A stretch of 64,000 bases of DNA from Escherichia coli O127:H6 str. E2348/69 (GTDB lineage: Bacteria > Pseudomonadota > Gammaproteobacteria > Enterobacterales > Enterobacteriaceae). Of this stretch, positions 15,109-15,340 are shown in pieces. The notes below the pieces were generated by a model. It was not told the origin of the DNA, searched no databases, and was given only the letters and a program-made list of their open reading frames with translations. Numbering within the stretch: position 1 is the first letter of the stretch; every line of letters starts with the position of its first letter. Where the stretch lies: NCBI RefSeq assembly GCF_000026545.1, contig NC_011601.1. One strand, written 5' to 3'. Made by a program: the position numbers and the translations under genes.

Positions 15109-15340
15109 ATAAAAACCATCCCTGATTTAATTTCAAATTAAATTTTATTTTAGTTTATTTCAAATCAGCACAAATTGCAAAAAAAATATCACACAAACCA
15201 TATATTATAATTTTAATAAATAAATTAAATTTATTTATTAATTATAAAAATATAAACAATCAAAATTAATGCCAGATAATATATTTTTATTATGGATATA
15301 TAGCGCGTAATAAAAAACGCTGCTGTAGCCAATACAGCTC
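15109..15340. promoter_or_regulatory. Highly AT-rich upstream region of the sinH-sinI operon with palindrome aataaataaatt/aatttatttatt
   Basis: ~230 bp of sharply lower GC directly upstream of the sinH start; typical of xenogeneically silenced promoters. Confidence 0.45.

Follow-up and report, generated by a model that had tools for sequence, protein, structure and literature searches.

An extremely A/T-rich tract upstream of the sinH adhesin operon of Escherichia coli E2348/69 as a probable H-NS-type control region

The extremely A/T-rich tract that precedes sinH in Escherichia coli O127:H6 EPEC E2348/69 is best read as an H-NS-type silenced control region, presumably occupied by H-NS, from which the sinH operon would be expressed conditionally. 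This reading, which we consider probable, is favoured by the composition and conservation of the tract itself, taken together with the silence of an orthologue in culture, its induction by LeuO and the reported up-regulation of sinH in UTI. The arrangement, an A/T-rich control region of the H-NS type preceding an adhesin operon of horizontal origin, is a familiar one and not unusual. As far as the alignments of related loci indicate, the property retained upstream of sinH is composition and not a specific operator.

The analysis covered a window of 64,000 nucleotides, that is, the whole stretch of DNA under study. Over 14900-15900, the sequence matches E. coli O127:H6 EPEC E2348/69 at 100% identity, the RefSeq gene coordinates fit the whole window, and the RefSeq annotation and a Pfam scan agree on the local gene layout (Table 1). 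The sequence-only reading had placed an adhesin operon downstream of the tract, and this proved correct: sinH is the first gene, the tract lies directly upstream of it, and the locus is horizontally acquired. Between sinH and the adhesion-domain gene, the scan of the minus strand detected no terminator-like site (one, at 9477-9458, comes after the latter), so that sinH, the sinI-family gene and the adhesion-domain gene look like a single minus-strand operon, read from the A/T-rich tract. For the common type of the locus, sinH and sinI have been reported to be co-transcribed (PMC12525524).

Table 1. Features of the sinH locus and of the A/T-rich tract, with positions in the window.
Feature	Positions	Strand	Basis or remark
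xseA	7806-9179	+	RefSeq/Pfam layout
yfgJ-type zinc-ribbon gene	9176-9391	-	RefSeq/Pfam layout
Terminator-like hairpin and T-run closing the putative operon, 3' of the adhesion-domain gene	9458-9477	-	Terminator scan
Adhesion-domain protein gene, 760 aa, BIg21 and InvE_AD domains; third gene of the putative operon	9508-11790	-	Pfam and RefSeq
sinI-family autotransporter-associated gene, 47 bp after sinH	11900-12856	-	RefSeq
sinH, intimin-like inverse autotransporter, 734 aa	12904-15108	-	Pfam IAT_beta E = 1.7e-107; RefSeq; ATG at 15108
A/T-rich 5' regulatory region (putative promoter(s) and 5' UTR) of the sinH operon, 15.7% GC	15109-15305	-	Composition and position
Conserved block just upstream of the ATG, coding strand AATCAGGGATGGTTTTTAT, probably the ribosome-binding region	15109-15128	-	Alignment
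Candidate sigma-70 promoter TTGCAA-17-TAAACT; 5' UTR ~37 nt	15152-15180	-	Own PWM scan; prediction only
57-bp run without G or C, longest in the window	15200-15256	.	Next longest 19 bp, i.e. one third
29-bp palindrome, perfect 14-nt arms, 1-nt centre: TTAATAAATAAATT-A-AATTTATTTATTAA	15213-15241	.	E2348/69 lineage-specific
TAAATAAATT, 8/10 match to the H-NS high-affinity motif tCGATAAATT, left palindrome arm	15217-15226	+	Motif comparison
TAAATAAATT, second 8/10 H-NS-like motif, inverted, right palindrome arm	15228-15237	-	Motif comparison
Candidate sigma-70 promoter TTAATT-17-TATAAT; 5' UTR ~126 nt	15241-15269	-	Own PWM scan; prediction only
Terminator-like element, sinH strand: 6-bp stem GCTGTA/TACAGC (15338-15322), then T-run	15306-15338	-	Simple terminator scan
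Decayed IS4-family element (insZ-like), left end abuts the A/T-rich tract	~15340-15862	+	Matches to IS4-family transposases
RefSeq pseudogene within the decayed IS4-family element	15568-15833		RefSeq
Integrase-bearing island, 7.5 kb	~15859-23312		Between the decayed IS and der
der	23313-24785	-	RefSeq/Pfam layout

The island that carries this operon is rare. The E2348/69 allele of sinH, together with its upstream region, is present in 8 of 5426 complete E. coli genomes; some sinH is carried by 1751 of them, nearly all with about 71-72% DNA identity to the E2348/69 allele, and the closest SinH relatives across 100,044 species-representative genomes are 62-74% identical. The E2348/69 island is located between yfgJ and der, whereas the common-type island is located between xseA and yfgJ, the two zinc-ribbon proteins being 67% identical, and the GC content of the island is 44-50%, against 51-56% in its flanks. 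Its rarity, the other side of insertion and the distance of the closest SinH proteins argue that the E2348/69 sinH island represents a separate, rare lineage of the CS54/ila-type island, and the neighbouring insertion site, with the identity of about 71-72%, suggests an independent acquisition. The CS54 island of Salmonella was reportedly described by Kingsley et al., in 2003, as shdA-ratB-ratA-sinI-sinH, and we take it to share the chromosomal neighbourhood from xseA to der with the E2348/69 island. Both belong to the same gene family, although the cargo downstream of sinI differs, consisting here of the single 760-aa BIg21/InvE_AD protein. A sigma-54 site that has been reported inside Salmonella sinH is intragenic and irrelevant to the tract. 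In strain Z1323HEC0423 (98-99% identical), sinH is annotated as a pseudogene with an internal stop and a missing N-terminus, and the adhesin is thus decaying in at least one lineage.

The 232 bp of 15109-15340 contain 46 G/C positions, that is 19.8% GC against 50.9% GC in the window. The lowest-GC 232-bp segment of the 64 kb (15072-15303, 18.1%) overlaps this region almost wholly, just 0.08% of the 232-bp segments are as low in GC, and GC ranges from 26 to 59% in the remaining 27 annotated intergenic regions that are 80 bp or longer. The region had been described as about 230 bp almost devoid of G/C, which is accurate for the core (15200-15299, 8% GC) but not for 15306-15340, 35 bp with 43% GC that comprise a T-run, a small hairpin and the end of the IS remnant. 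The real end of the tract lies at about 15305, and the extreme part is 15109-15305 (197 bp), with 15.7% GC, or 84% AT versus 49% AT for the window. TpA steps occur 15.7 times per 100 bp in the tract and 4.6 times in the window, hence 3.4 times as densely, and the spacing of the A/T-tracts is irregular across it, so that a coherent intrinsic curvature is not indicated. Concerning structured RNAs, Rfam gave no match at E <=1 in 14600-16200 on either strand, and at gathering thresholds the whole window contains just ryfA, sroE, iscRS and ES036, all of them elsewhere. A conserved 5'-UTR structure was rejected, since the predicted stem CUGAUU/AAUCAG has z = -0.8 versus shuffles and its partner is not conserved, and the small ORFs of the tract, such as a 33-aa ORF starting with TTG, are low-complexity artefacts only.

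Such a composition generates many promoter-like matches. On the sinH strand of the tract, there are 3-4 sigma-70-like hexamer pairs scoring at least 9, versus 0.43 per kb-strand in the window; compared with composition-matched shuffles there is no excess (3 observed against a mean of 2.1, with a best score equal to the shuffle mean), and a consensus promoter scan of the same strand found no site within the tract. The promoter-like matches thus equal the expectation from composition, and the sites listed are candidates only. In addition to the two candidates of Table 1, the PWM scan yielded a further one with a 5' UTR of about 20 nt, and a candidate promoter at a distance similar to that of the candidate at 15241-15269 is among the top PWM scores in the haplotypes of Z1323HEC0423, Rb-50 and A25. 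At the sinH-proximal end of the tract, the block 15109-15128 is invariant in 5 of 5 aligned strains, and identity collapses immediately upstream. Just beyond the distal end, the terminator-like element at 15306-15338 is weak: a 46-nt segment folds into two small stems at -12 kcal/mol with z = -1.5 (not better than shuffles), and a 58-bp gap in the A25/DCE7 alignment removes part of it. This element could insulate sinH from upstream read-through.

The conservation of the tract was followed by aligning E2348/69 with four of the seven other carriers of the allele (Z1323HEC0423, Rb-50, A25 and DCE7). Three upstream haplotypes can be distinguished, namely that of E2348/69 with Z1323HEC0423, that of Rb-50 and that of A25 with DCE7, with pairwise identities of 66-74% in the A/T-rich tract. 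Between E2348/69 and Rb-50, the tract is 66% identical and the four-fold degenerate sites of sinH are 68.7% identical, which indicates that the sequence of the tract drifts at the neutral rate. All three haplotypes are at 20-22% GC, and the adjacent decayed IS stays at about 34-64% GC. Low GC also recurs in a wider set of 18 related loci (Escherichia, Citrobacter, Pseudocitrobacter, Superficieibacter, Leminorella, Rahnella and Yersinia): for 16 of them, the 250 bp upstream contain 22-34% GC, within loci whose own GC content is 45-54%. The exceptions are Leminorella, with 38% GC, and Yersinia massiliensis, with 55% GC, which is the most distant one and has a start codon about 114 nt off the expected position. 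Composition that is retained without sequence fits a reader of composition, and the obvious one in E. coli is H-NS.

The comparison of E2348/69 with A25 places a sharp boundary at the start of the tract. The two genomes are 97-100% identical from guaA to sinH and from der to hisS, with one 200-bp bin of xseA at 91.5%, and identity at four-fold sites of the coding region is 98%, whereas the ~750-bp sinH-der intergenic segment (15128-15862) is 51-87% identical, the drop setting in no more than about 20 bp from the sinH start codon. Judged from these identities, the segment is a recombination mosaic. It may be speculated that it constitutes an exchangeable regulatory cassette, a proposal that we hold to be unlikely; no fewer than three promoter haplotypes, deeply diverged, precede this type of island. 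If the haplotypes conferred different expression set-points, it would amount to promoter-allele swapping of the adhesin operon, and if that were true, the perfect palindrome peculiar to E2348/69 could serve for paired nucleation of H-NS or, being prone to cruciform formation, as a sensor of supercoiling.

E. coli DNA as A/T-rich as the tract is typically bound by H-NS. The AT content at this position falls within the range of H-NS-bound DNA, since the best 500-bp window around the tract has 69.6% AT and ChIP-defined H-NS sites average 61.4% AT over 500 bp (PMC2094087). The published H-NS high-affinity motif, tCGATAAATT, has a central T-A step, and footprinted sites fit this template at 5.5-9 of 10 positions (PMC2094087). 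The core ATAAATT with the central T-A step is present twice in the tract, surrounded by more A/T-rich DNA, in the layout of the 'nucleate and spread' type that was proposed with the proU/proV nucleation sites (Lang et al. 2007, PMC2094087); in contrast to the proV sites, the two copies, which are candidate sites from sequence, match at 8 of 10 positions, lack the CG, and are inverted and abutting. The motif is weak evidence on its own because its specificity is low: in the control of the authors, a site was expected in ~39 of 99 random 500-bp regions (PMC2094087), so that about 39% of such regions carry one. In the literature search, no H-NS ChIP data were found for EPEC or sinH, nor, for this allele or for EPEC, any data on expression or on the binding of H-NS, StpA or LeuO, and the main text of Lucchini 2006 mentions neither sinH nor CS54. 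The earlier claim of an H-NS-silenced, horizontally acquired promoter is partly supported: composition and horizontal origin agree with it and two 8/10 matches are present, H-NS occupancy and hns-dependence of this allele being presumed.

In the mechanism that we propose, the extreme A/T content and the many flexible TpA steps would make the tract a preferred substrate of H-NS, with StpA and Hha as likely partners, and the two inverted near-consensus sites in the palindrome would be plausible nucleation points. The H-NS nucleoprotein filament formed in this way would cover the numerous overlapping promoter-like hexamers, so that the operon would stay off in ordinary culture. A counter-silencer or changed conditions would then be required for expression; LeuO is the best candidate by analogy with iatB, and host signals, temperature or supercoiling are possible alternatives for de-repression.

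The analogy comes from iatB, the sinH orthologue of E. coli SMS-3-5. No IatB protein could be detected in cultures grown in LB or M9 at 28-42 C (Goh et al. 2019, PMC6714894). When transposon mutants were screened for increased activity of the iatB promoter, only insertions driving leuO were recovered, loss of hns not being recovered, and over-expression of LeuO raised the iatB transcript ~15-fold (PMC6714894). The description of LeuO as an H-NS antagonist comes from a paper cited by PMC6714894, as relayed there, and a role of H-NS at iatB is presumed by way of LeuO. Additionally, sinH has been reported to be up-regulated in human UTI, in women (PMC9937491). Like the E2348/69 tract, the iatB promoter lies upstream of the first gene of a sinH-sinI-type cluster and is A/T-rich, with 25% GC over 205 bp in a common-type strain. 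The coding DNA of the two is about 71-72% identical, but their upstream regions do not align, the iatB region lacks the palindrome, and the E2348/69 tract is more extreme (15.7% GC). Conditional expression, which had been read from the sequence, is documented for the orthologous iatB/sinH of other E. coli, through a promoter that does not align with the present one.

Other regulated systems offer more distant parallels. FdeC (eaeH), another inverse autotransporter of E. coli, is said to be regulated by H-NS and temperature in EHEC, in work of Easton from 2014. Its promoter, which H-NS is said to repress, also exerts conditional control over an inverse autotransporter, but the gene and the locus are different, and H-NS dependence is experimental there and presumed for the sinH tract. 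The H-NS-silenced, Ler-activated promoters of the LEE and of non-LEE genes belong to the same strain and also combine horizontally acquired, virulence-type DNA with A/T-rich regulation. In the Ler-regulon microarray of E2348/69, nothing is listed between E2348C_2705 and E2348C_2915, where sinH should lie (PMC3891560), so that Ler is not indicated as activator or counter-silencer. In the PerC paper, there was no match for E2348C_26-28 tags, invasin or autotransporter. A gene for a PerC-family regulator, homologue of the EPEC virulence regulator PerC, is located at 1163-1462 of the window, on a prophage by guaA (integrase at 3086-4339).

The low GC content could alternatively be a passive legacy, either of donor composition or of A/T-biased decay at the edge of the island, in which case sinH would have an ordinary promoter without real silencing by nucleoid proteins. 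The divergence of the tract at the rate of neutral four-fold sites and the number of promoter-like matches, no higher than composition predicts, are both in keeping with this explanation. Neutral decay, however, fails to account for 15-22% GC when the equally unconstrained dead IS remains at about 34-64% and other intergenic regions at 26-59%, and it does not explain why low GC recurs in front of sinH relatives in several genera although the sequences do not align. The habitual binding of H-NS to E. coli DNA of this kind also speaks against it, as do the silence and the LeuO-inducibility of the orthologue (PMC6714894), and we regard the passive explanation as rather unlikely.

More specific functions could reside in the inverted repeats of the tract, the most conspicuous of which is the 29-bp palindrome, whose core (15215-15239) is the string that the sequence-only reading had quoted and whose existence is confirmed, with its perfect 14-nt arms. 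A specific dimeric transcription factor could use it as its operator, or it could form a cruciform that senses supercoiling, and in either case it would be the key control element of sinH in E2348/69. Arms of 14 nt appeared in 1, 6 and 3 of 3000 dinucleotide-preserving shuffles for three nested A/T-rich regions (p about 0.001-0.002), and the palindrome therefore exceeds what composition alone yields; as RNA, it forms a hairpin of -8.3 kcal/mol with z = -3.3, better than every shuffle, and it abuts the best-scoring candidate -10 hexamer (15246-15241). Against such a role, the palindrome is perfect in E2348/69 only, having one mismatch in the 98%-identical Z1323HEC0423 and being degenerate in Rb-50, A25 and DCE7, and 18 of the 19 other sinH-type upstream regions lack a significant palindrome, that of the remaining one (Citrobacter MGH106) being unrelated in sequence. 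It is made of simple AAAT/ATTT repeats, no second copy with up to 3 mismatches exists within the 64-kb window, and the 13 exact matches to its 25-mer in metagenomes come from unrelated contigs, all with 21-33% GC, for which reasons a mobile or recurrent element was also discarded. For want of conservation, the palindrome is distinctly unlikely to act as a specific operator or a cruciform, and the emphasis previously placed on it as a conserved functional element is not upheld. A phase-variation switch, in the form of an invertible promoter or a slipped-strand repeat, is more improbable by far. Adhesin genes of E. coli often phase-vary, UpaE being reportedly controlled by the invertible element ipuS (PMC6083910), and the tract contains many A/T inverted repeats. 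Yet the 8 carrier genomes are co-linear, with no inverted orientation among them; the inverted repeats are of low complexity, imperfect and do not bracket a promoter-sized segment; short repeat units reach 2-3 copies only; and the one recombinase in the vicinity, an integrase, belongs to the island that the four relatives examined lack. A switch of the fimS/ipuS type was accordingly rejected, the genomes being co-linear and lacking suitable repeats and a dedicated recombinase. The Citrobacter sp. MGH106 palindrome is itself perfect, with 16-nt arms (GTCCCGAAATATTCAT) and a 3-nt loop, about 190 nt upstream of the sinH homologue, and was equalled in 0 of 400 shuffles.

SinH is an ExPEC vaccine antigen in development and a fitness factor in UTI models, and the timing and mode of operon switch-on therefore matter. 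Silencing of the H-NS type predicts that this rare variant of sinH is not expressed under standard culture conditions unless de-repressed, and EPEC studies would have overlooked it for that reason. The gain for E2348/69 itself is modest; the sinH tract nevertheless offers a clean example of a control region that keeps its composition and not its sequence.

On the other side of the decayed IS, the 7.5-kb integrative island (31-48% GC, and 31-45% over 15860-20000) sits in the 3' end of der. Its genes include a tyrosine integrase (21825-23087), an AlpA-type HTH gene (15959-16558), an NTase-domain gene and a pentapeptide-repeat gene (17065-18847) and hypothetical genes. PADLOC gave only weak NTase-motif matches to candidate systems for this cargo. 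A sequence resembling the end of der is duplicated at 15845-15858, and GGGTACAC/GTGTACAC repeats are located near both ends of the island, at 15925-15945 and 23131-23206. The island is absent in the four relatives examined, in which der directly adjoins. Within it, a segment of 1144 bp with 40% GC (18848-19991) has no annotated gene, no minus-strand ORF of at least 50 aa and no Rfam match at gathering thresholds. Finally, a strong stem-loop is predicted on the minus strand at 15785-15830 (-20.2 kcal/mol, z = -3.4), just downstream of the der-end remnant, and it is unlike the hairpin found after der in a common-type strain (4840-4870 of that locus).
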